From the NCBI GenBank assembly GCA_051882195.1, contig JBJERI010000034.1, positions 252-64,251 on the forward strand: a stretch of DNA of 64,000 nt, written 5' to 3'. The DNA comes from Ruminiclostridium sp. GTDB lineage: Bacteria > Bacillota > Clostridia > Oscillospirales > Ruminococcaceae. The notes beneath the pieces were generated by a model. That model saw only the letters and a list, made by a program, of their open reading frames with translations. It had not been told where the DNA came from and ran no database searches. Of the stretch, positions 23,441 through 52,616 are shown piece by piece (position 1 is the first letter of the stretch; every line of letters starts with the position of its first letter). The position numbers and the translations under genes are program-made.

Positions 23441-23516
23441 CGGGGTATGGCGCAGCTGGTAGCGCGCTCGTCTGGGGGGCGAGAGGTCGCGTGTTCAAGT
23501 CACGTTACTCCGACCA
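23441..23516 (+). tRNA. tRNA-Pro (anticodon GGG), CCA encoded
   Basis: Hand-folded cloverleaf. Acceptor CGGGGTA/TACTCCG. D arm GCGC-AGCTGGTA-GCGC. Anticodon arm CTCGT-CTGGGGG-GCGAG with G37. T arm GCGTG-TTCAAGT-CACGT. Ends in ACCA. Confidence 0.9.
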
Positions 23517-44812: not shown

Positions 44813-44889
44813 GCGCTTATAGCTCAGCAGGATAGAGCGGCCGCCTCCTAAGCGGCAGGCCGGAGGTTCGAATCCTCTTAAGCGCGCCA
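44813..44889 (+). tRNA. tRNA-Arg (anticodon CCU), CCA encoded
   Basis: Hand-folded. Acceptor GCGCTTA/TAAGCGC. D arm GCTC-AGCAGGATA-GAGC. Anticodon arm GCCGC-CTCCTAA-GCGGC. T arm GGAGG-TTCGAAT-CCTCT. Ends in GCCA. Confidence 0.9.
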
Positions 44890-44962: not shown

Positions 44963-46339
44963 ATGAAATTCAAATGGAACAAAAAATACGGCAGGATTGC
45001 CGCCTATGCCATAGGCGTTATCGTAATCAGCGGCATGCTGCTGCTTGCCGTCAACTATCTGCCGGGCTTTGAAGAGGTCTTCAGCTTTATCGGCTCGGTG
45101 CTTACCCCCATTATATGGGGTGTGGTGATTGCCTACCTATTAAATCCGATTATGGATTTTTTTGAGCACCGAGTTTTCAAAAAGTGGCAAAAGGACGCTT
45201 CAAGGCGGAAACAGCGCCGACTGCGTGTGATTTCCCTGTGGATAACGGTAATAGTGGCTCTTGCACTTATGGCGGGAATGGTGTGGCTGGTAACGCCTCA
45301 GCTGCTTGGCAGCGTTTCAAAGCTTGTACCTCAGCTTGAAGCCTATGCCCTCAATATCCGTGACTGGGCGGAAAGCACCTTTGCGGACAGCCCCGAAATC
45401 GCAGCCTTTATTGCAGACCCAATGGTGCAGCTTGAAAAGTACATTTCCGAGCTGTGGACGTCCATGCAGCCTGCTCTTACAAGCGCAATTTCAAAGGTTG
45501 GCGGCGGTCTGCTAAGCTTTGTAATCGGCTTCAAGGACTTTATCATCGGCTTTATTATCGCAATTTATCTGCTTCTTGCAAAGGATATGCTGCTGCGGCA
45601 GGCGAGAAAAATCCTTTTCGCTTTCCTGCACAACGACTTTGTACAGCACATACTGAACCTTTGCCACCGCTCCAACAAGATTTTCAGACATTATATGGTG
45701 GGAATCGTGCTGGACGCATTCTTTGTGGGCTGTCTGACCTTTATTTTCTCCACAATAATCGGTGCGCCCTACCCCGTACTCCTTGCGGTAATAATCGCCT
45801 GCACAAACATTATCCCATTTTTCGGCCCCTTTATCGGCGGTATTCCAACGGCAATAATCGTGCTGCTTGACGACCCGCTGAAATGCCTCTGGTACGTTAT
45901 TTTCATGCTGTGTATGCAGCAGTTTGACGGAAATGTTATGGTGCCGCTCATACAGGGGGACAGGACAGGCGTTCCAAGCGTATGGGTGCTTATGGCGATA
46001 ATCGTTGGCGGCGGCTTGTTTGGCTTTGTGGGAATGTTGCTTTCCGTACCTGTTTTTGCGGTAATTTATATGCTTATGAGCGAATGGATCTCCACACGGC
46101 TCAAAAAGAAAAATCTCCCCTCGGACACGCTTCTTTACGAGGACAACGTGGGGCGGTTCACAAACGATTACGTCTATACCGAGGAGGACAGGCAGAAGGA
46201 CAATGAAAAGCTGGAACAGCTTGCGGCAGAGGACGGGAAAAAGAAAAAGGTACGCATAAAAAAGCTGGAGCAGGCTATTGAAAAGAAAAACGAGGAATTT
46301 GAGGAATCCCTGAACAATTCCGAAAATGATGTGAAATAG
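44963..46339 (+). CDS. AI-2E family transporter (PerM/UPF0118)
   Basis: 458-aa polytopic membrane protein with an AI-2E-like core (...FGPFIGGIP...) and a charged C-terminal tail. The ATG at 44963 is preferred over the TTG at 44957. Confidence 0.8.
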   Translation: MKFKWNKKYGRIAAYAIGVIVISGMLLLAVNYLPGFEEVFSFIGSVLTPIIWGVVIAYLLNPIMDFFEHRVFKKWQKDASRRKQRRLRVISLWITVIVALALMAGMVWLVTPQLLGSVSKLVPQLEAYALNIRDWAESTFADSPEIAAFIADPMVQLEKYISELWTSMQPALTSAISKVGGGLLSFVIGFKDFIIGFIIAIYLLLAKDMLLRQARKILFAFLHNDFVQHILNLCHRSNKIFRHYMVGIVLDAFFVGCLTFIFSTIIGAPYPVLLAVIIACTNIIPFFGPFIGGIPTAIIVLLDDPLKCLWYVIFMLCMQQFDGNVMVPLIQGDRTGVPSVWVLMAIIVGGGLFGFVGMLLSVPVFAVIYMLMSEWISTRLKKKNLPSDTLLYEDNVGRFTNDYVYTEEDRQKDNEKLEQLAAEDGKKKKVRIKKLEQAIEKKNEEFEESLNNSENDVK

Positions 46340-46340
46340 C

Positions 46341-46369
46341 TTGAAATAAGGCGTCCTATGTGATATAAT
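46341..46369 (+). promoter_or_regulatory. Sigma-A promoter for pheS
   Basis: TTGAAA, 17-nt spacer, TGaTATAAT. Confidence 0.65.
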
Positions 46370-46409
46370 TCTAAATTGATTTTGAATAATTGAAAGGTTT
46401 GGTTTTAAA

Positions 46410-47429
46410 ATGAAAGATCAGCTTCAGAAAATAAAGGAGCAGGCGTTAAGTCAGATTGAGGCCTGCAAGGAAGTCAAGGAAATTGACGACTTACGAGTTA
46501 AGGTGCTTGGCAAAAAGGGCGAGCTTACCGCTATATTAAAGCAGATGGGCAAGCTTTCCGCCGAGGAAAGACCGGTTATCGGACAGCTTGCAAACGAGGT
46601 AAGGGAAAAGCTGGAAAGCTCCATTTCCGAAAAGCTTGCAGCCCTTAAATCCAAGGCTGTTGAAATGAAGCTTGCAGCCGAAACTGTTGACGTTACAATG
46701 CCCGGCACAAAGCACGAGCAAGGCAGACGTCACCCGCTGAACACAGTCCTTGAGGAAATGAAGGACATTTTCAGAGGAATGGGCTATACCGTTGTGGACG
46801 GCCCCGAGGTTGAGGAAACAAAGTACGTTTTCGATATGCTGAACACCGACGAGGGACACCCCGCAAGAGATCCCCAGGATACATTCTACATCACAGACAA
46901 AATTCTGCTTCGTACACAGACCTCTTCCGTGCAGATAAGGACAATGCTTAAGGAAAAGCCTCCTATCGCTATTATCAGCCCCGGCAGAGTTTACCGCTCC
47001 GACGCTGTTGACGGAACACACTCCCCTATTTTCCACCAGTGCGAGGGTCTTGTAATCGACAAGAAAATCACCTTCGGCGACCTTAAGGGCACTCTGGAAA
47101 TGTGGGCAAAGCGTCTTTACGGCGACAATGTAAAGCTGCGCTTCCGTCCTCACCACTTCCCCTACACAGAACCCTCCGCAGAGGTTGACTTACAGTGCTT
47201 CAAGTGCGGCGGCAAGGGCTGCTCTCTCTGCAAGGGCGAGGGCTGGATTGAAATGCTTGGCTCAGGCATGGTACACCCCCAGGTGCTTATTAACTGCGGC
47301 ATTGACCCTGAGGAATATACAGGCTTTGCTTTCGGTATCGGTCTTGAAAGAATTACAATGATGAGATACGCAATAGACGATATGAGATTGCTTTACGAGA
47401 ACGATTCAAGATTCCTGTCACAGTTCTGA
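46410..47429 (+). CDS. pheS: Phenylalanine--tRNA ligase alpha subunit
   Basis: 339 aa with class II aaRS motifs ([18 protein letters not shown]). Confidence 0.96.
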
Positions 47430-47441
47430 AAAAGGTGAAAT

Positions 47442-48266
47442 ATGAACGCTGAAAAAAAGAAAGCCATAGAAATTGTAGTTGATGCAAGCATAAAAAGCTT
47501 TGCAGCAGGACTGACAAGCAGATATGAAAAGGAATTAAACTGTGACGACGGCGTTATAAATATGAAGAAAAACAACTGCTTCATTGCGGAATTGGGCGAA
47601 GAATTTATGTTCTATTCTGCCTTTGTTCGAAGCTTTGACAGCAGCTTTGGAAATATCCTTGAACAGATAGGAAACGACATAGCAAAATTATCCTACGAAG
47701 TCAAAGGAGATATTACCTCATTTATCCTGCCTGACCAGACGCAGCGGATTGCCTCTGTGCTTGACAGTTATCTTGACCACACGTCAACTCCGTCAATATC
47801 TCACTACTCAAATTTTGATGTTATTTATCCTAAAAATACGGTAAGCTTTGAAAGAACTCACGTTACCGATAATTATTTTTATAACCCCAAAACCAATGAG
47901 CATTATATAATTGAGCTTAAAGCGTCCGGAGATTTGGACAATAAGAAAGCAAGAGCAGAAAAGTCCGCATTATTGGAAGAATATTTTTTGCTGAAAAATT
48001 CTCTAAAGGACGATAAGACCGCCAAGATATACATATATTTTGGCACGGCGTATAATAAATACGGAGAGAATAATTATTGGAAGCAGGAAAGAGTAAGACA
48101 GTTTTTCGCAGAAGATGAACTGCTTATCGGCAAGGATTATTGGAATTTTGTATGCAACGATAAAGATGGTTTTGATATCATTTTCAATCAATATAAAATT
48201 TCAGCAGGGAAAATAAAAGAAGCGTTGGAGAAAATAAAAAAGATGTATTTTGATAATGGAAATTAA
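47442..48266 (+). CDS. Putative type II restriction endonuclease (PD-(D/E)xK-like)
   Basis: 274 aa and AT-rich. Candidate catalytic motif ...VTDNYFY...HYIIELKASGD (D...ExK). It overlaps the downstream methyltransferase gene by 11 nt. The family assignment (possibly TdeIII-like, from memory) is unverified. Confidence 0.6.
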   Translation: MNAEKKKAIEIVVDASIKSFAAGLTSRYEKELNCDDGVINMKKNNCFIAELGEEFMFYSAFVRSFDSSFGNILEQIGNDIAKLSYEVKGDITSFILPDQTQRIASVLDSYLDHTSTPSISHYSNFDVIYPKNTVSFERTHVTDNYFYNPKTNEHYIIELKASGDLDNKKARAEKSALLEEYFLLKNSLKDDKTAKIYIYFGTAYNKYGENNYWKQERVRQFFAEDELLIGKDYWNFVCNDKDGFDIIFNQYKISAGKIKEALEKIKKMYFDNGN

Positions 48267-48987
48267 AGTAAACGAAATCGACAAAAAACTGCTGGTTAAT
48301 TCCGATTGTTTTTCTGTTTTAAAAAATCTTCCCGATAAGTCAGTTGATTTAATTCTGACAGACCCGCCCTATAACCTTGCAAAGTACAGTACAGGAAATA
48401 TGTCCTTTGATTGGCGCTCAGATATCAACAACGATGTTGCGGAATGGGATTTAGTTGAACTTAAGCCAACTGATTTGGCGGAAGAATTTAAAAGAATTCT
48501 GTCGCCAAAAGGAAATATATTTATATTTTGCTCTTATAATCTGATTGGCGAATATCACAAGGCTTTCGACCCCATATTCGACACATTTCAGTTTATGGTA
48601 TGGCATAAAACAAACCCTGTTCCAAATTTCAGAAAGTCATCGTTTCTCAACAGCTGTGAGCTGATTGTTTCTTGTTGGAATAAAGGACACACTTGGAATT
48701 TTACAAATCAAAAGGATATGCACAATTTTATTGAAAGCGGTATTTGCATGGGAAAGGAAAGAATAAAGGACAAAAACGGTAAAAATCTTCACCCAACACA
48801 AAAGCCTGTTTCAGTTTTAAAAAAAATAATCGAAATAGCGTCTAACCAAAACGATATTGTGCTTGACTGCTTTAACGGAGTAGGAAGTACCGGAGAGGCG
48901 GCGTTAAGTCTTAATCGGAGATATATCGGAATTGAAATAGACAAGCAGTATTTTGACGCAACAGCTGAGCGCTTAAAAAATTATTAG
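48256..48987 (+). CDS. Beta-class DNA amino-methyltransferase (N6-adenine or N4-cytosine)
   Basis: Motif IV LILTDPPYNL precedes motif I DCFNGVGSTGEAA (circularly permuted beta order). There is also an HPTQKP motif. 243 aa. Confidence 0.9.
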   Translation: MEIKVNEIDKKLLVNSDCFSVLKNLPDKSVDLILTDPPYNLAKYSTGNMSFDWRSDINNDVAEWDLVELKPTDLAEEFKRILSPKGNIFIFCSYNLIGEYHKAFDPIFDTFQFMVWHKTNPVPNFRKSSFLNSCELIVSCWNKGHTWNFTNQKDMHNFIESGICMGKERIKDKNGKNLHPTQKPVSVLKKIIEIASNQNDIVLDCFNGVGSTGEAALSLNRRYIGIEIDKQYFDATAERLKNY

Positions 48988-49017
48988 TAAAATAAATTCC
49001 ATGAAAGGAAGAATAAA

Positions 49018-51417
49018 ATGGATTTATCTATGAAATGGCTTAACGACTACGTTAAAGCCGATATGCCAATAAAGGACTTTGTTGCCGCAATGACCATGAG
49101 CGGCTCAAAGGTTGAAACCTACAAATCACTTTCCGAGCCTTTATCAAAGGTTGTTGTAGGAAAGATAACAAAAATCGAAAAGCACGCCGACAGCGAAAAG
49201 CTGTGGATTTGTCAGATTGACATCGGCGAAAAGACCGTTCAGATCGTTACTGCGGCGCAGAACTGCTACGAGGGCGCAATTGTTCCCGTTGTTCTTGACG
49301 GCGGCGTTGTAATCAACCGCAAGGAAGGCGGCTCAATGAAGATTACAAAGGGCAAGCTTAGAGGCGTAATGAGCGAGGGCATGATGTGCAGCTTTGAGGA
49401 GCTGGGCATGGAAAATTCCGACTTCCCTTACGCAACTCCCGACGGAATACTTATCTTCAACGAAGACCCCGACATTGACAAGTTTGAGCTTGGAATGGAC
49501 GTAACAAAGGCTGTGGGCATTGACGATACACAGGTTGAATTTGAAATCACAAACAACCGCCCCGACTGCCTTTCCGTTTTAGGCCTTGCAAGAGAGGCAA
49601 GCGCTACCTTTGACCTGCCCCTTAACTACAAAAAGCCCCAATTCAAAGGCATTGACTACGACATTAACAAGGACGTTTCCGTTACCGTTGAAAACACGCA
49701 GCTTTGCTCACGCTATATGGCAGGTCTTGTAAAGAACGTTAAGATAGGCCCGTCCCCGAGGTGGCTGGCGGAAAGACTTCGTGCAAGCGGCGTCCGTGCA
49801 ATAAACAACATCGTTGATATTACCAACTTCGTAATGCTTGAATACGGTCACCCAATGCACGCATTCGATTTAAGATATGTTGAGGGCGGCAAAATTGTTG
49901 TCCGCAACGCAAAGGATGGCGAAACCCTTAAGCTCCTTGACGAGGCGGCAGAGCCGGTTAAGCTTTCACCCGAAATGCTGGTTATTGCAGACGAGAAAAA
50001 GCCAATGGCTGTTGCAGGCGTAATGGGCGGCGAATATTCGGGTATATGGGACGATACAACCACCGTTGTATTCGAGGCTGCCTGCTTCGACGGCGTATCC
50101 GTAAGACGTACTGCAAAGAAAATCGGTGAAAGAACAGAGGCAAGCTCACGCTTTGAAAAGCGCCTTGACCCCGCAAACGCTGAGGAGGCGCTCCACAGAG
50201 CATTGGAGCTGGTTGAAATGCTTGGCTGCGGCGAGCCCTGCAAGTCAATTATCGACTGCGACCACTCAAATAAAGAGCCCTTCACATTAAAGCACGACTA
50301 CAAATGGATTAACGAGTTTTTAGGCTCGGACATCAGCGAGGAGGAACAGGTTTCAATCCTCAAAAAGCTTGGCTTCGGCTATGACAACGGCGTTGTTACA
50401 GTGCCCCCTTACAGAATCGACATTGAACGTCAGTGCGACCTTGCGGAGGAAGTAGCGAGAATTTATGGCTACAACAACATTCCTACCTCTATCCCAAGAC
50501 TTTCAAGCCAGAGCAAGATGACTCCCGTACAGGCTTTCCAGCAGAAGCTTACGGAAATCATGATTGCAGAGGGCTGCTATGAAACAATGACCTTCAGCTT
50601 TATTTCTCCAAAGTGGTATGATAAAATCAATCTGCCCGAGGAGGAAAAGCGCTCCGTTGTTATCACAAACCCTCTTGGCGAGGACACAAGCGTTATGAGA
50701 ACAACAATGATTCCGTCTATGATGGAGCTTGTTGTACGCAACATAAACAACAGAAACCTTGCAGGCCGTTTCTTTGAAATAGGCAGAGTTTATAAGCCAA
50801 TGGAAAGCGTTGACCAATTGCCTGTTGAGGAGGACGTACTGGCAATTGCTCTTTACGGCGAAAAGGAGGACTTCTTCTCCTTAAAGGGTATTGTGGAGGA
50901 AATACTGGACAAGACAGGCATTGAGGGCAAGTTCACACAATGCACCACAAACAAGACCTTCCATACGGGAAGATGCGCTGAGCTTACAGCAGGCGGCAAG
51001 ACAATCGGTACTCTTGGCGAAATTCACCCCCTTGTTTGCGAAAACTACGGCGTTAAGGACAGAATTTACATTGCCGTGCTTAAGCTTGCTCCCATGATTG
51101 AAGCACAGAACACCGACATAAAGTACAAGGCATTGCCTAAGTTCCCCGCAATGACAAGAGATTTAAGCCTTGTTTGCCCCGACGAGTTAAGCTCGGGCGA
51201 AATTATTGACATAATCACAAAAACAGCTAAAAATCTCGAGCAGGTAACACTGTTCGATATGTATAAGGGCACAGGCGTTCCCGAGGGCAAAAAGTCCCTT
51301 TCCTACAAGCTTGTACTTCGTCATAAGGACAGAACAATGGAAAATGACGAGGCTGACAAGACCGTTGAAAAGGTGCTGAAAGCACTGGCTGAAAAGGATA
51401 TTACCTTAAGATCGTAA
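49018..51417 (+). CDS. pheT: Phenylalanine--tRNA ligase beta subunit
   Basis: 799 aa. MDLSMKWLNDYV N-terminus, with tRNA-binding, B3/4, B5 and FDX-ACB regions recognisable. Confidence 0.96.
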   Translation: MDLSMKWLNDYVKADMPIKDFVAAMTMSGSKVETYKSLSEPLSKVVVGKITKIEKHADSEKLWICQIDIGEKTVQIVTAAQNCYEGAIVPVVLDGGVVINRKEGGSMKITKGKLRGVMSEGMMCSFEELGMENSDFPYATPDGILIFNEDPDIDKFELGMDVTKAVGIDDTQVEFEITNNRPDCLSVLGLAREASATFDLPLNYKKPQFKGIDYDINKDVSVTVENTQLCSRYMAGLVKNVKIGPSPRWLAERLRASGVRAINNIVDITNFVMLEYGHPMHAFDLRYVEGGKIVVRNAKDGETLKLLDEAAEPVKLSPEMLVIADEKKPMAVAGVMGGEYSGIWDDTTTVVFEAACFDGVSVRRTAKKIGERTEASSRFEKRLDPANAEEALHRALELVEMLGCGEPCKSIIDCDHSNKEPFTLKHDYKWINEFLGSDISEEEQVSILKKLGFGYDNGVVTVPPYRIDIERQCDLAEEVARIYGYNNIPTSIPRLSSQSKMTPVQAFQQKLTEIMIAEGCYETMTFSFISPKWYDKINLPEEEKRSVVITNPLGEDTSVMRTTMIPSMMELVVRNINNRNLAGRFFEIGRVYKPMESVDQLPVEEDVLAIALYGEKEDFFSLKGIVEEILDKTGIEGKFTQCTTNKTFHTGRCAELTAGGKTIGTLGEIHPLVCENYGVKDRIYIAVLKLAPMIEAQNTDIKYKALPKFPAMTRDLSLVCPDELSSGEIIDIITKTAKNLEQVTLFDMYKGTGVPEGKKSLSYKLVLRHKDRTMENDEADKTVEKVLKALAEKDITLRS

Positions 51418-51443
51418 AAGAATCAAAAGAAAGGAATTGAATT

Positions 51444-52616
51444 ATGTCTATCAGAAAGAAAATAGTTTCTGCAATTCTTGCAGGCGTTCTCTGCGTAACA
51501 ACAGCCGCTTCCCTTACGGGCTGCGGAGATGTAAGCTACGCAATGACAATCAACGACGAAAAGCTTAACGCAGGCATTTATCTGTACTACGAGTATCAGG
51601 CAAAGAGCGAGGCAGTTAGCAAGTTTGCTGAGGAAAACCCCGATGTGGATACCTCCGCAGAGGGCTTTGACTACTTTGCAAACAACGTTGAGGGCAGGCC
51701 CTTTGCACAGTGGATTACCGACAAGACAGAGGAGCTTTGCAAGGAATATGCGGCGGTAAACGCATTGTTTGACGAAAAGGGACTGGAGCTTACAGAGGAC
51801 GAAATCAGCGAAATCAACGCAAGCGTAAAGTCCACATGGTATGACGAAAACCCATACCTTGTTTATTACGGAATTGATTTTGACACAATGGGCAAGTACT
51901 ATGAGTCCCTTGGTATCGGAATGGAAAGCTACAAGCAGCTTGCATTGAACGAGGAAAAGAGAGAAACCCTCTTTGACTCACTTTATTCCGTAGGCGGTAC
52001 AGAGGGTACAACTCAGGCGGAGGTTGACGCTTACTTTGCTGAAAATTACGCAAGAGCGGCTTATTTTGAGATTGCTCTCGAGGACGGCAACGGGGATACA
52101 ATCGAAACCAGCGAGGGACTTCAGATTTTAGAGGACCTTGGCAACGGCTATGTTGAGGAGTTAAAGAACGGTACTCCTTTCAGCACAGTTTCAAAGGAAT
52201 ACGATACATTTGTGGACGAACAGCGCAAGGCTGCCGAAAAGGCACAGGCTGAGGCAGACGGCACAGTTTATCTTGAAGAGGACGAGGAAGAGGAAGCAGA
52301 CGAGGATAAGACCGAAGCTGACTACGAAACAATGTTCACAAAGACAGGCACTTATCCGTCAGAGGAATTTGTGGAAAACCTGTTCGCAATGTCCAACGAC
52401 GCTCCCCAGCTTTACAAGACCGAGGACGCATATTACGTTGTAGTGCGCCGTGATTTAAGCGAAAGAACAGACTGGCTTGAGGAAAACACTCACACCATTA
52501 TCCACAAGCTTAAGGAAGACGCAATGACAGAGCTTCTTGCAAACGCTTATGCAGGCTACAATGTTGTAATCAACGAGGCAGCAAAGAGCGCTTACGACCC
52601 GAAATCATTAAAGTAA
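51444..52616 (+). CDS. Lipoprotein, SurA/PrsA N-terminal-domain-like chaperone candidate with no visible PPIase domain
   Basis: Lipobox SLTGCG, an acidic low-complexity insert (EEDEEEEADEDKTEAD), 390 aa. Confidence 0.65.
   Translation: MSIRKKIVSAILAGVLCVTTAASLTGCGDVSYAMTINDEKLNAGIYLYYEYQAKSEAVSKFAEENPDVDTSAEGFDYFANNVEGRPFAQWITDKTEELCKEYAAVNALFDEKGLELTEDEISEINASVKSTWYDENPYLVYYGIDFDTMGKYYESLGIGMESYKQLALNEEKRETLFDSLYSVGGTEGTTQAEVDAYFAENYARAAYFEIALEDGNGDTIETSEGLQILEDLGNGYVEELKNGTPFSTVSKEYDTFVDEQRKAAEKAQAEADGTVYLEEDEEEEADEDKTEADYETMFTKTGTYPSEEFVENLFAMSNDAPQLYKTEDAYYVVVRRDLSERTDWLEENTHTIIHKLKEDAMTELLANAYAGYNVVINEAAKSAYDPKSLK

Follow-up and report, generated by a model that had tools for sequence, protein, structure and literature searches.

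Within the window, the 64,000-nt stretch of DNA analysed here, a segment of 1588 bp (47430-49017) separates pheS from pheT, the genes for the alpha and beta subunits of phenylalanyl-tRNA synthetase. Both flanks are conserved and lie on the forward strand: pheS on the left (46410..47429; PF01409 at 1e-99, PF02912) and pheT on the right (49018..51417; five PheT Pfam domains). Two open reading frames of the same, forward, strand fill the segment. Reading of the sequence places a cassette-borne 12-nt spacer (AAAAGGTGAAAT; 47430..47441, + strand) with a Shine-Dalgarno-like AGGTGA in front of ORF1 (47442..48266; 274 aa), which is followed by ORF2 (48256..48987; 243 aa), starting at ATG 48256 or TTG 48250 and accordingly overlapping ORF1 by 11 or 17 nt. 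A second cassette-borne spacer, 30 nt in length (48988..49017, + strand), has taken the place of the native one and carries a Shine-Dalgarno-like AAGGAAG for pheT. The coordinates, the gaps of 12 and 30 nt and the 11-nt overlap given in an earlier note on this DNA are exact to the base. Its description of the insert as AT-rich holds as well: GC content is 0.355, whereas 1588-nt segments average 0.468 across the window (sd 0.022); the insert lies about 5 sd below this mean and is the minimum of 625 such segments, and GC3 amounts to 0.36-0.38 in the insert genes versus 0.52-0.59 in five neighbouring genes. Neither an integrase nor a transposase, inverted repeats or attC-like ends were found adjoining the window cassette, and the search for flanking repeats or a target duplication yielded short chance matches only, in agreement with the absence of integrase and repeats claimed before. 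An assembly made independently, L001 (Logan SRR31936957), has identical junctions, and the nuclease also occurs as a partial NCBI protein (P0001) of Candidatus Limousia pullorum; since these two sources agree, the insert is no assembly artefact.

ORF1 encodes a type II restriction endonuclease of the TdeIII/HinfI family, probably of PD-(D/E)XK type. It matches PF09520 (RE_TdeIII/HinfI) with E = 1e-43 and 150 bits (gathering cut-off 27.2), residues 6-249 aligning to profile positions 1-236 of 242. D143, E158 and K160 (D…ExK) are invariant in 44 homologues of 43-86% identity and intact in the window protein. An AlphaFold2 model built with 24 close homologues reached a pLDDT of 46.5; with 44 diverse homologues the value rose to 86.9, and the three residues are located on adjacent strands. 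Foldseek searches with this model returned sub-significant matches only (best E = 0.08), the top 50 being mostly PD-(D/E)XK nucleases; among the sub-significant matches are Bse634I, BstEII, AddAB, RecB, Can2, R2 and arenavirus and bunyavirus endonucleases. A PDB sequence search with the nuclease and with its profile produced nothing meaningful, and no model in PADLOC (v2.0.0) or NCBIfam recognises the protein. Because the PADLOC models tried missed the nuclease, cassettes located within operons may be under-counted in defence surveys.

ORF2 encodes a beta-class N6-adenine DNA methyltransferase, matching PF01555 (E = 3e-39, 135.6 bits, cut-off 26.7) and the PADLOC model MTase_II (1.5e-53). The DPPY motif is a hallmark of N6-adenine methyltransferases; in ORF2 it appears as TDPPYN near the N terminus, followed by HPTQKP and, near the C terminus, FNGVGSTG, which is the beta-class order. 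The best solved relative is the methyltransferase domain of CcrM (6pbd, 9e-34), with whose family the window enzyme shares the beta-class architecture and DPPY. In contrast to the 366-residue CcrM chain, however, the 243-aa protein aligns to CcrM residues 14-257 only and is devoid of the C-terminal domain. With both Pfam matches, intact catalytic residues and beta-class motif order, the reading of the two genes as a restriction-modification (R-M) pair is upheld, and the insert is, as predicted from its sequence, an orthodox type II pair with separate adjacent endonuclease and methyltransferase genes.

A domesticated or decaying module would be an alternative, in which the methyltransferase serves as an epigenetic regulator while the nuclease is inactive or being lost and no defence is provided. 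Consistent with such a role, the genes sit in a housekeeping operon and no control (C) protein accompanies them; enzymes like CcrM act as regulators in Alphaproteobacteria; and at one related locus, L095, an HNH protein takes the place of the methyltransferase behind the nuclease. Nevertheless, strong purifying selection acts on both genes (dN/dS 0.04-0.07 for the nuclease gene and 0.05-0.065 for the methyltransferase gene), the catalytic residues D, E and K show no variation among the homologues and are preserved in the window protein, and nuclease and methyltransferase genes are adjacent in nearly all related loci, which renders domestication very unlikely.

Target of the predicted restriction-modification pair

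GANTC is the most likely target of the cassette. The motif occurs 72 times in the window versus 190 ± 14 expected occurrences, a 2.5-fold depletion, and the observed/expected ratio of 0.41 is below the 0.69-0.77 of relatives with empty sites. That an adenine is the target base is suggested by the DPPY motif of ORF2 and by more distant members of the nuclease family, which are paired with D12-class adenine methyltransferases. The HinfI system of Haemophilus influenzae Rf recognizes GANTC, and PF09520, to which the window nuclease belongs, is named HinfI by newer Pfam releases. The specificity is not secured, since ORF2 scores 151.7 bits against the CcrM/M.HinfI equivalog NF050803, far under its cut-off of 830 bits, and lacks the CcrM C-terminal domain. 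In HinfI the methyltransferase gene precedes the nuclease gene, unlike the cassette, where the order is nuclease then methyltransferase.

It is possible, although on the doubtful side, that the pair constitutes a real R-M system with another adenine target, for instance GATC, or an asymmetric sequence comparable to GAGG, the site of M1.HpyAVI. The shortness of ORF2 and its score under the equivalog cut-off would be in keeping with this, as would the match to 5hfj, an H. pylori methyltransferase that was deposited under the name 'DpnA', which comes close to the CcrM match (2e-30 versus 9e-34). GATC equals GANTC in depletion (z = -7.9 each), and many other palindromes are depleted too. Targets presumably differ within the nuclease family, for TdeIII is described by Pfam as a GGNCC cutter. 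On the other hand, the newer family name points to HinfI, and the depletion of GANTC exceeds that of cassette-free relatives. GGNCC itself was rejected as a candidate: its depletion is equal in cassette-free relatives and the site offers no adenine to a DPPY enzyme. Self-avoidance of GANTC by the cassettes was dropped as a line of evidence, the 0-6 sites per copy being inconsistent.

The window nuclease shares its Pfam/NCBI name, 'TdeIII family type II restriction endonuclease', with TdeIII (TDE0911) of Treponema denticola, to which it is distantly related. TdeIII has been shown by experiment to be active as a barrier to transformation (PMC12878829, citing Bian & Li 2011). A horizontally moved TdeIII-like R-M system is also known from H. 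pylori PeCan4 (PMC3467074); unlike the cassette, it is linked to an IS element and situated outside a synthetase operon.

Acquisition and recurrence at the pheS-pheT junction

In the two closest species-representative genomes, L002 and L003 (pheS amino-acid identity to the window 99% and 97%, respectively), pheS and pheT are separated by a spacer of 33-40 nt. Similarity to these genomes stops directly after the pheS TGA and restarts with the second base of the start codon of pheT, a codon that reads ATG in the window and L001 and GTG in L002 and L003. The native spacer ...ATAATATACGGAGGATAATTCA-GTG, common to L002 and L003, is missing in the window, and the 12-nt spacer before the nuclease gene is not present in the two empty sites. 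A search for a nuclease or methyltransferase near pheS in 80 species representatives found none. The window and L001 cassettes differ at 1 position of the 1588-nt insert, whereas the flanks, 4394 nt in all, show 160 differences, or 3.64% (Poisson P = 4.5e-24). The tract of near-identity (47319..49073, sole difference at 47745) extends ~110 nt back into the 3′ end of pheS and ~56 nt into the 5′ end of pheT and is likely the footprint of a recent recombination import. The cassette has thus spread between strains, the same copy being found in backgrounds 3.6% apart. With empty sites in the closest relatives and a foreign composition, the earlier note's insertion between pheS and pheT is confirmed; presence is patchy rather than clade-wide, and GC is always under that of the flanks instead of host-like. 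The junction comparison thereby identifies the cassette as a horizontal acquisition by a gut Clostridia genome.

Among 12 nuclease homologues checked (at least 73% identity), 8 lie between pheS and pheT, 3 between parB and serS, and 1 on a mobile-element-like contig. For this cassette the location, considered unusual at first, is therefore not so: no other site occurs as often among the checked homologues as pheS|pheT, which is also a documented R-M site in Neisseria. Claus et al. (2000, J Bacteriol 182:1296) and Saunders & Snyder (2002) reportedly dealt with the Neisseria locus. As far as these comparisons go, relatives of the cassette have settled at this junction in many other species, so that the insert is no one-off and pheS|pheT represents a recurring hotspot, a type for which Neisseria provides the precedent. 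Three further species are polymorphic for the cassette (L084-87 versus L067, with 99.1-99.9% flank identity; L178 versus L004; L175 versus L003), and cassette GC is 8-15 points under that of the measured pheS|pheT and parB|serS hosts. Divergent R-M alleles occupy pheS|pheT in the window and in L175, L082, L084, L088 and L176-178, whereas L004, L005, L017 and L018 harbor a gene for a ~180-aa predicted membrane protein with two TM segments instead.

Cassette similarity, as far as can be judged from these copies, does not track host similarity. The nuclease homologues at pheS|pheT are 76-86% identical, compared with 55-71% identity for host PheT, and neighbouring genes differ. L177 and L082 share 90% of PheT and 81% of nuclease residues; conversely, L177 and L084 share 90% of nuclease and 83% of PheT residues. 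Synonymous divergence between the window and L175 is 0.40 for host pheS and 0.82 for the adjoining nuclease gene. For the pair L084 and L177, synonymous divergence is the same in cassette and host (about 0.6), so some vertical co-inheritance also occurs. This equality, saturation of synonymous sites between cassette variants, which speaks for an old association, and a tree of concatenated nuclease and methyltransferase sequences, in which the pheS|pheT cassettes are monophyletic (131/200 bootstraps, 65%) and the parB|serS cassettes paraphyletic, would also suit an ancient resident derived from one ancestral insertion in Oscillospiraceae, inherited vertically and precisely lost many times. Such a history would require repeated scar-free deletion because empty sites keep the conserved native spacer. 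It is unlikely in view of the single difference between the window and L001 cassettes despite 3.64% flank divergence, the incongruent cassette and host similarities, a synonymous divergence between sister-species cassettes twice that of the host gene, and a GC content that still lies 8-15 points under that of the hosts.

Related cassettes are found beside three synthetase genes, namely at pheS|pheT, at parB|serS and downstream of lysS; a distant one in L155 (62% identity) reached pheS|pheT independently, and the lysS-type copy in L104 adjoins a Tn916-type integrase. Tentatively, with the odds somewhat against it, these two-gene HinfI/TdeIII-type cassettes, with no promoter ahead of the nuclease gene, may form a clade that has specialised, within gut Clostridia, in the intercistronic gaps of essential, highly conserved operons. 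Junction-defined clades are weak when the nuclease alone is used for the tree (43%, 13% and 59% bootstrap); concatenation with the methyltransferase raised the value for pheS|pheT to 65%. If specialisation were true, conserved essential genes would supply homology arms between species and genera at the same junction as well as a constitutive source of transcription and an anchor against deletion, and the tie to aminoacyl-tRNA synthetase genes would be a selected strategy rather than chance.

Proposed expression within the pheST operon

Upstream of pheS, a promoter-like site (46341..46369, + strand; TTGAAA, 17-nt spacer, TATAAT, extended TG) constitutes the best scan match (11/12) and likely drives pheS, the cassette and pheT. 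A search for a T-box or other Rfam element upstream of pheS found none. The cassette-borne sequence before the nuclease gene, at 12 nt, is too short for a promoter. Between 46000 and 52000, promoter-like matches (10 versus 8.6 ± 2.8 in shuffles) and terminator-like matches (9 versus 6.8 ± 2.8 in shuffles) are at chance level, so that the scans neither strengthen nor weaken the earlier statement that no internal promoter or terminator is evident. The AT-rich insert does hold weak promoter-like sites, e.g., at 48953-48981, 37 nt upstream of pheT, which could drive pheT independently. Expression of the insert from the pheST transcript, with pheT dependent on read-through, is plausible. One transcript starting at the pheS promoter would then cover pheS, both cassette genes and pheT. 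The ribosome-binding sites would come from the cassette itself, that of pheT included, and translational coupling of the two inserted genes is proposed. Placement in an essential operon may in addition exert a stabilising, or addictive, effect. The cassette constitutes a natural system for asking if such a position stabilises an R-M system and if the insertion disturbs the stoichiometry of the PheRS subunits.

Proposed mobility of the cassette and comparison with known systems

The overall evidence is probably best explained by a functional R-M cassette, as predicted, likely directed at GANTC, transcribed from the pheS promoter and behaving as a minimal mobile element that moves by recombination in its flanks. 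The cassette would have entered a Candidatus Limousia-like (Oscillospiraceae) lineage horizontally, replacing the native 33-40 nt spacer. It would travel with short pieces of the pheS 3′ end and the pheT 5′ end and become incorporated by recombination within the pheS and pheT flanks; successive hosts would therefore carry it at one and the same junction. The concept of the minimal mobile element (PMC3082526, PMC3787668) is matched by pheS/pheT flanks that enclose this cassette, another cassette, another gene or nothing, and by the absence of mobility genes and terminal repeats, the cassette ends not being conserved between loci. Traces at individual junctions fit as well: pheS of L084 ends in TTT TAG instead of TTC TGA (final codon and stop), and the L178 cassette has at its borders a remnant resembling the start of pheT and a repeat of 17 nt from the end of pheS. 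In a set of 69 genomes, comprising the window and 68 species representatives, the first 60 nt of pheT rank second among 381 sixty-nt windows in conservation (0.853, compared with 0.701 over the first 1200 nt); conservation at the 3′ end of pheS is unremarkable. The flanks of distant hosts share 61-81% nucleotide identity, a divergence that is high for RecA-dependent exchange, and clustering of donor SNPs beside the junction was not seen in L084 versus L067. A phage or plasmid as the vehicle is unsupported, with no match in the phage collection and a single distant one (44%, Psychrobacter) in the plasmid collection.

Site-specific mobilisation next to synthetase genes, by a recombinase provided in trans or through double-strand breaks made by the cassette's own nuclease, might account for the presence of related cassettes beside three different synthetase genes, the independent arrival of L155 at pheS|pheT, the Tn916-type integrase next to the L104 copy, the 17-nt target duplication in L178 and two GANTC sites in the last 27 nt of pheS in the window. 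Such a route is nonetheless decidedly improbable, as cassette ends and spacers vary between loci, the window is devoid of repeats and an integrase, other hosts have no GANTC sites at the junction, and the traces that donor ends of pheS and pheT have left agree with recombination in the flanks.

Flank recombination is also what has been proposed for Neisseria, where type II R-M systems, e.g., NmeDI, are situated between pheS and pheT (PMC7973814, PMC3082526). There, as here, the content of the locus varies between strains, mobility genes are absent and homologous recombination of the flanks is the proposed route of exchange (PMC7973814, PMC3082526, PMC3787668). Several differences exist between the two cases. 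The host belongs to the Bacillota, being an uncultured gut member of the Oscillospiraceae. The Neisseria locus carries m5C systems with Vsr, whereas the cassette combines a TdeIII/HinfI nuclease with a beta-class m6A methyltransferase. While unrelated systems alternate within one genus in Neisseria, one cassette clade extends across hosts with PheT identities of 51-71%, and the cassette spacing (12 and 30 nt) is very tight and compatible with an operon. The minimal-mobile-element idea and the pheS/pheT hotspot appear to reach well beyond naturally competent Proteobacteria, and a defence cassette without mobility genes can persist as a presence/absence polymorphism at a single exact junction inside an essential operon of uncultured gut Firmicutes.

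Low-GC R-M genes that vary between strains and are not accompanied by a transposase or integrase have been described (Nobusato et al. 2000; Furuta et al. 2010; PMC2853133). The repetition of 17 nt of the pheS end in L178 resembles R-M insertions with long target duplications; those are defined by direct repeats of >30 bp, as opposed to none in the window and 17 nt in L178. A core defence hotspot of Pseudomonas aeruginosa, cDHS1, is situated near pheS/pheT/rplT (PMC10250203) and similarly anchors defence genes at the conserved essential pheST region. It represents a large multi-system island beside the operon and next to a tRNA gene, whereas the cassette consists of two genes inside the pheS-pheT gap.

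A restriction-modification gene pair between pheS and pheT

Two genes separate pheS (46410-47429) from pheT (49018-51417), all four on the forward strand. ORF1 (47442-48266) follows pheS after 12 nt, and ORF2, which runs from an ATG at 48256 (alternatively a TTG at 48250) to 48987, overlaps ORF1 by 11 nt from the ATG or 17 nt from the TTG and leaves 30 nt before pheT. The ORF map thus reproduces exactly the coordinates, gaps and overlap in an earlier note on this DNA, which had described an AT-rich restriction-modification (R-M) module here. Its compositional claim also holds: the GC content of the 1588-bp insert (47430-49017) is 0.355 versus a window mean of 0.468 (sd 0.022 across equally long windows), the lowest of 625 such windows, and GC3 is 0.36-0.38 in the insert genes versus 0.52-0.59 in five neighbouring genes. 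No repeats beyond chance flank the insert in the window, and no recombinase is linked to it there. A tRNA-Arg(CCT) gene (44813-44889) lies directly upstream of the AI-2E-family permease gene preceding pheS and a tRNA-Pro(GGG) gene (23441-23516) further upstream of pheS, neither of them linked to an integrase close to the cassette.

The two products bear out the proposed R-M identity. ORF1 matches nearly the whole profile of PF09520, the TdeIII type II restriction endonuclease family (E = 1e-43), which the genomic-context lookup lists as HinfI in a newer Pfam release. Across an alignment of 44 homologues (43-86% identity), D143, E158, and K160 do not vary, and in the window's ORF1 they are intact, in the sequence TD…ELK. 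By family and motif, assignment as a nuclease appears secure; the predicted fold is only suggestive of it. In an AlphaFold2 model built from the same alignment (pLDDT 86.9), the three residues lie on adjacent beta strands, and a Foldseek search with this model found no close solved structure (best E-value 0.08), the top 50 weak matches being mostly PD-(D/E)XK nucleases (Bse634I, BstEII, N.BspD6I, AddAB, RecB, Can2, Card1, viral cap-snatching endonucleases, and R2). ORF2 is a PF01555 enzyme (E = 3e-39) with the beta-class motif order, DPPY upstream of FxGxG. Among solved structures, the closest to it is the CcrM methyltransferase domain (9e-34); at 243 aa it lacks the CcrM C-terminal domain, and it falls below the CcrM equivalog cut-off (151.7 versus 830 bits). 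Both genes are under strong purifying selection, with nonsynonymous proportions (pN) of 0.05-0.16 versus synonymous proportions (pS) of 0.6-0.9 and a dN/dS of 0.04-0.07 where estimable. TdeIII itself acts as a transformation barrier (PMC12878829), and H. pylori has acquired a TdeIII-like system (PMC3467074).

Other architectures occur around related nucleases. On contig L095 (4001-5470, pheS/pheT), a nuclease of 78% identity is followed by a 221-aa HNH_2 protein (HNH endonuclease-like in PADLOC) in place of the beta-class methyltransferase; a methyltransferase may be encoded at another locus, or the module may have undergone remodelling. Relatives of 58-64% identity (L115-L169; e.g., L129 2044-4807 and L163 2846-4810) are paired with a D12-class adenine methyltransferase, as is a 44% relative on the Psychrobacter plasmid pA3H9 (L181 2675-5548), a different architecture within the same nuclease family. 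L129 and pA3H9 additionally encode a NOV_C/DUF3883 protein.

Import and distribution of the cassette

Neither cassette gene was found near pheS in the 80 closest species-representative genomes, which were found through PheS. In the closest two, L002 (PheS 99% identical) and L003 (97%), pheS and pheT are separated by 33 and 40 nt, respectively, with the native spacer sequence ATAATATACGGAGGATAATTCA-GTG in common. Similarity of the window to both ends right after the pheS TGA and restarts at base 2 of the pheT start codon (49018), which is ATG in the window and in L001, a second strain with the same cassette (Logan SRR31936957), versus GTG in the two empty-site genomes. The native pheT Shine-Dalgarno sequence GGAGGA is replaced by a cassette-borne AAGGAAG, and these changes at the start of pheT may affect the PheS:PheT ratio. 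The insert junctions are identical in the independent L001 assembly, and the same nuclease is represented at NCBI by a partial protein from a genome of Candidatus Limousia pullorum (Oscillospiraceae). While the flanks of the window and L001 differ at 160 of 4394 positions (3.64%), the cassettes differ at one of 1588 (Poisson P = 4.5e-24), so the cassette is much younger than the split of its two carrier backgrounds. The near-identical tract spans about 47319 to 49073, entering both flanking genes, the pattern that import through flank recombination leaves behind. Empty sites and shared tract together support the core of the earlier reading, horizontal insertion into the pheST operon.

The same note had called the location unusual, a view that does not survive comparison. 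Of the 12 nuclease homologues (identity ≥73%) whose genomic context was looked up, window included, eight lie between pheS and pheT (window, P0002, P0004, P0013, P0014, P0018, P0021, and P0036; the 1.5-kb contig of P0002 shows the pheS side only), three between parB and serS, and one on a mobile-element-like contig. The pheS/pheT location is the rule for this cassette and no accident. The closest precedent comes from Neisseria, where type II R-M systems such as NmeDI occupy this junction, with strain-to-strain differences (PMC7973814, PMC3082526). In Pseudomonas aeruginosa, a core defence hotspot is likewise anchored by the pheS/pheT/rplT neighbourhood (PMC10250203). Novel features of the present case are its phylum and enzyme family, its very tight spacing compatible with an operon, and the fact that a single cassette clade has persisted at one junction in different genera.

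Neighbouring genes differ among the pheS/pheT hosts, which share 55-71% PheT, 76-81% nuclease, and 75-81% methyltransferase identity with the window. A metagenome scan added two more pheS/pheT cassettes, one of them distant (L155: nuclease 62%, PheT 51-53%), as well as cassettes downstream of lysS, between lepA and pta, after guaA, and on plasmid-like contigs. Cassette GC lies 8-15 points under the flanks at the pheS/pheT and parB/serS loci measured and likewise below them at most metagenome loci. Three further species are polymorphic at the pheS/pheT junction: in L084-87 versus the empty L067 (flanks 99.1-99.9% identical), 1596 nt stand in place of 39 nt; L178/179 versus L004 is a second strain-level case; and L175 carries the cassette while the empty L003 shares a 542-nt pheS fragment at 99.4% identity.

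An aminoacyl-tRNA synthetase gene is touched in three of about 12 distinct contexts, a share improbable as chance by a rough post-hoc estimate (P around 2e-3), and an association with such genes is possible. Sister cassettes are tightly placed between parB and serS in L091-L094, L096, L097, and L182-L187 (order near the origin: gidA-gidB-parB-parA-parB-[cassette]-serS-dnaA); in L099, L103, L105, and L153 they lie directly downstream of lysS, which greA precedes in L099. One lysS-type copy (L104 516-4063) retains 45 nt of lysS-context upstream flank and has a Tn916-type integrase 244 nt upstream and a stand-alone tRNA_bind-domain gene downstream; it may have been captured by an integrative element. 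Several related species carry another gene of host-like GC in the pheS-pheT gap, predicted to encode a two-TM protein of ~155-185 aa (L004 5392-5931, L178 5714-6178, L179 4142-4672, and the gaps of L005, L017, and L018). In L004, L005, L017, and L018 it begins with an ATG overlapping the pheS stop (TGATG); in L178 and L179 the R-M cassette is placed between pheS and this gene, whose L178 copy has no PADLOC match and no Pfam family on record.

Inheritance and movement

How similar two cassettes are does not follow how similar their hosts are. L177 and L082 share 90% PheT and 81% nuclease identity, and L177 and L084 90% nuclease and 83% PheT identity. In sister species, on the same contig pair, synonymous divergence is 0.40 in host pheS versus 0.82 (saturated) in the adjacent nuclease gene. 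Between L084 and L177 cassette divergence equals host divergence, so there is some co-inheritance with the host too. A neighbour-joining tree of concatenated nuclease and methyltransferase groups seven pheS/pheT cassettes (65% bootstrap), with L155 outside and the parB/serS cassettes paraphyletic; the nuclease-only tree has weaker support. The overall picture suggested by these comparisons is of one cassette clade with an old association with the pheS/pheT junction, kept up as a polymorphism in which alleles are replaced as well as gained and lost.

Neither the ends nor the spacers of the cassettes are conserved from locus to locus. In L084, pheS finishes with TTT TAG as its final codon and stop, rather than the TTC TGA of a 99.9%-identical empty-site relative; in L178, a pheT-start-like ATGAACTTATCTA directly follows the methyltransferase stop and a 17-nt repeat of the pheS end brackets the insert. 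Both junctions look like visible footprints of donor flanks. Within a species, the cassette would move by recombination in the flanking genes; over larger distances, recombination may be anchored by homology on one side, although flanks of distant cassette hosts are only 61-81% identical, a high divergence for RecA-dependent exchange. Across 69 genomes (the window and 68 species representatives), the first 60 nt of pheT rank second of 381 sixty-nucleotide windows in conservation (0.853 versus 0.701 for the first 1200 nt), and the pheS 3′ end is only average. Such movement would fit the behaviour by which 'minimal mobile elements' are defined (PMC3082526, PMC3787668); R-M indels without mobile elements are common (PMC2853133).

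Expression and target specificity

Promoter- and terminator-like matches within 46000-52000 stay at the level of shuffled sequence. The best promoter match (46341-46369, 11/12 with extended TG) lies directly upstream of pheS, where no T-box or other Rfam element was found. Since only 12 nt of cassette, containing a Shine-Dalgarno-like AGGTGA, precede the nuclease gene, it would be transcribed from host sequence, most likely from this promoter. That the methyltransferase gene begins before the nuclease gene has ended suggests translational coupling. For pheT, the cassette supplies its own 30-nt spacer and ribosome-binding site; weak promoter-like sites are present inside the AT-rich insert, and an independent pheT promoter there is conceivable. 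Its position in pheST might plausibly stabilise the cassette or make it 'addictive', the latter as the earlier note proposed.

The DPPY motif is a mark of N6-adenine methyltransferases. Its presence in ORF2 and the D12 adenine methyltransferase pairing of distant nuclease relatives indicate that the target should contain adenine. GANTC is our best guess, only slightly likelier than not: it occurs 72 times in the window versus 190 ± 14 in shuffles, and its observed/expected ratio is 0.41 versus 0.69-0.77 in empty-site relatives. GGNCC depletion is equal with and without the cassette in the genomes compared; in the window GATC is depleted as strongly as GANTC, and depletion extends to many other palindromes. 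At the left junction, the final 27 nt of pheS contain two GANTC sites (GATTCAAGATTC, 47403-47414); the pair is probably coincidental, because the same sequence is found in the empty-site L002 and is absent from the junctions of other hosts. Outside 47430-49017, CTAG is absent from the window versus 29.5 expected, and observed/expected ratios are 0.11 for CGCG, 0.15 for GGCC, 0.20 for CCGG, 0.24 for GATC, and 0.36 for GGNCC, a strong palindrome depletion suggestive of prolonged contact with several further restriction systems.
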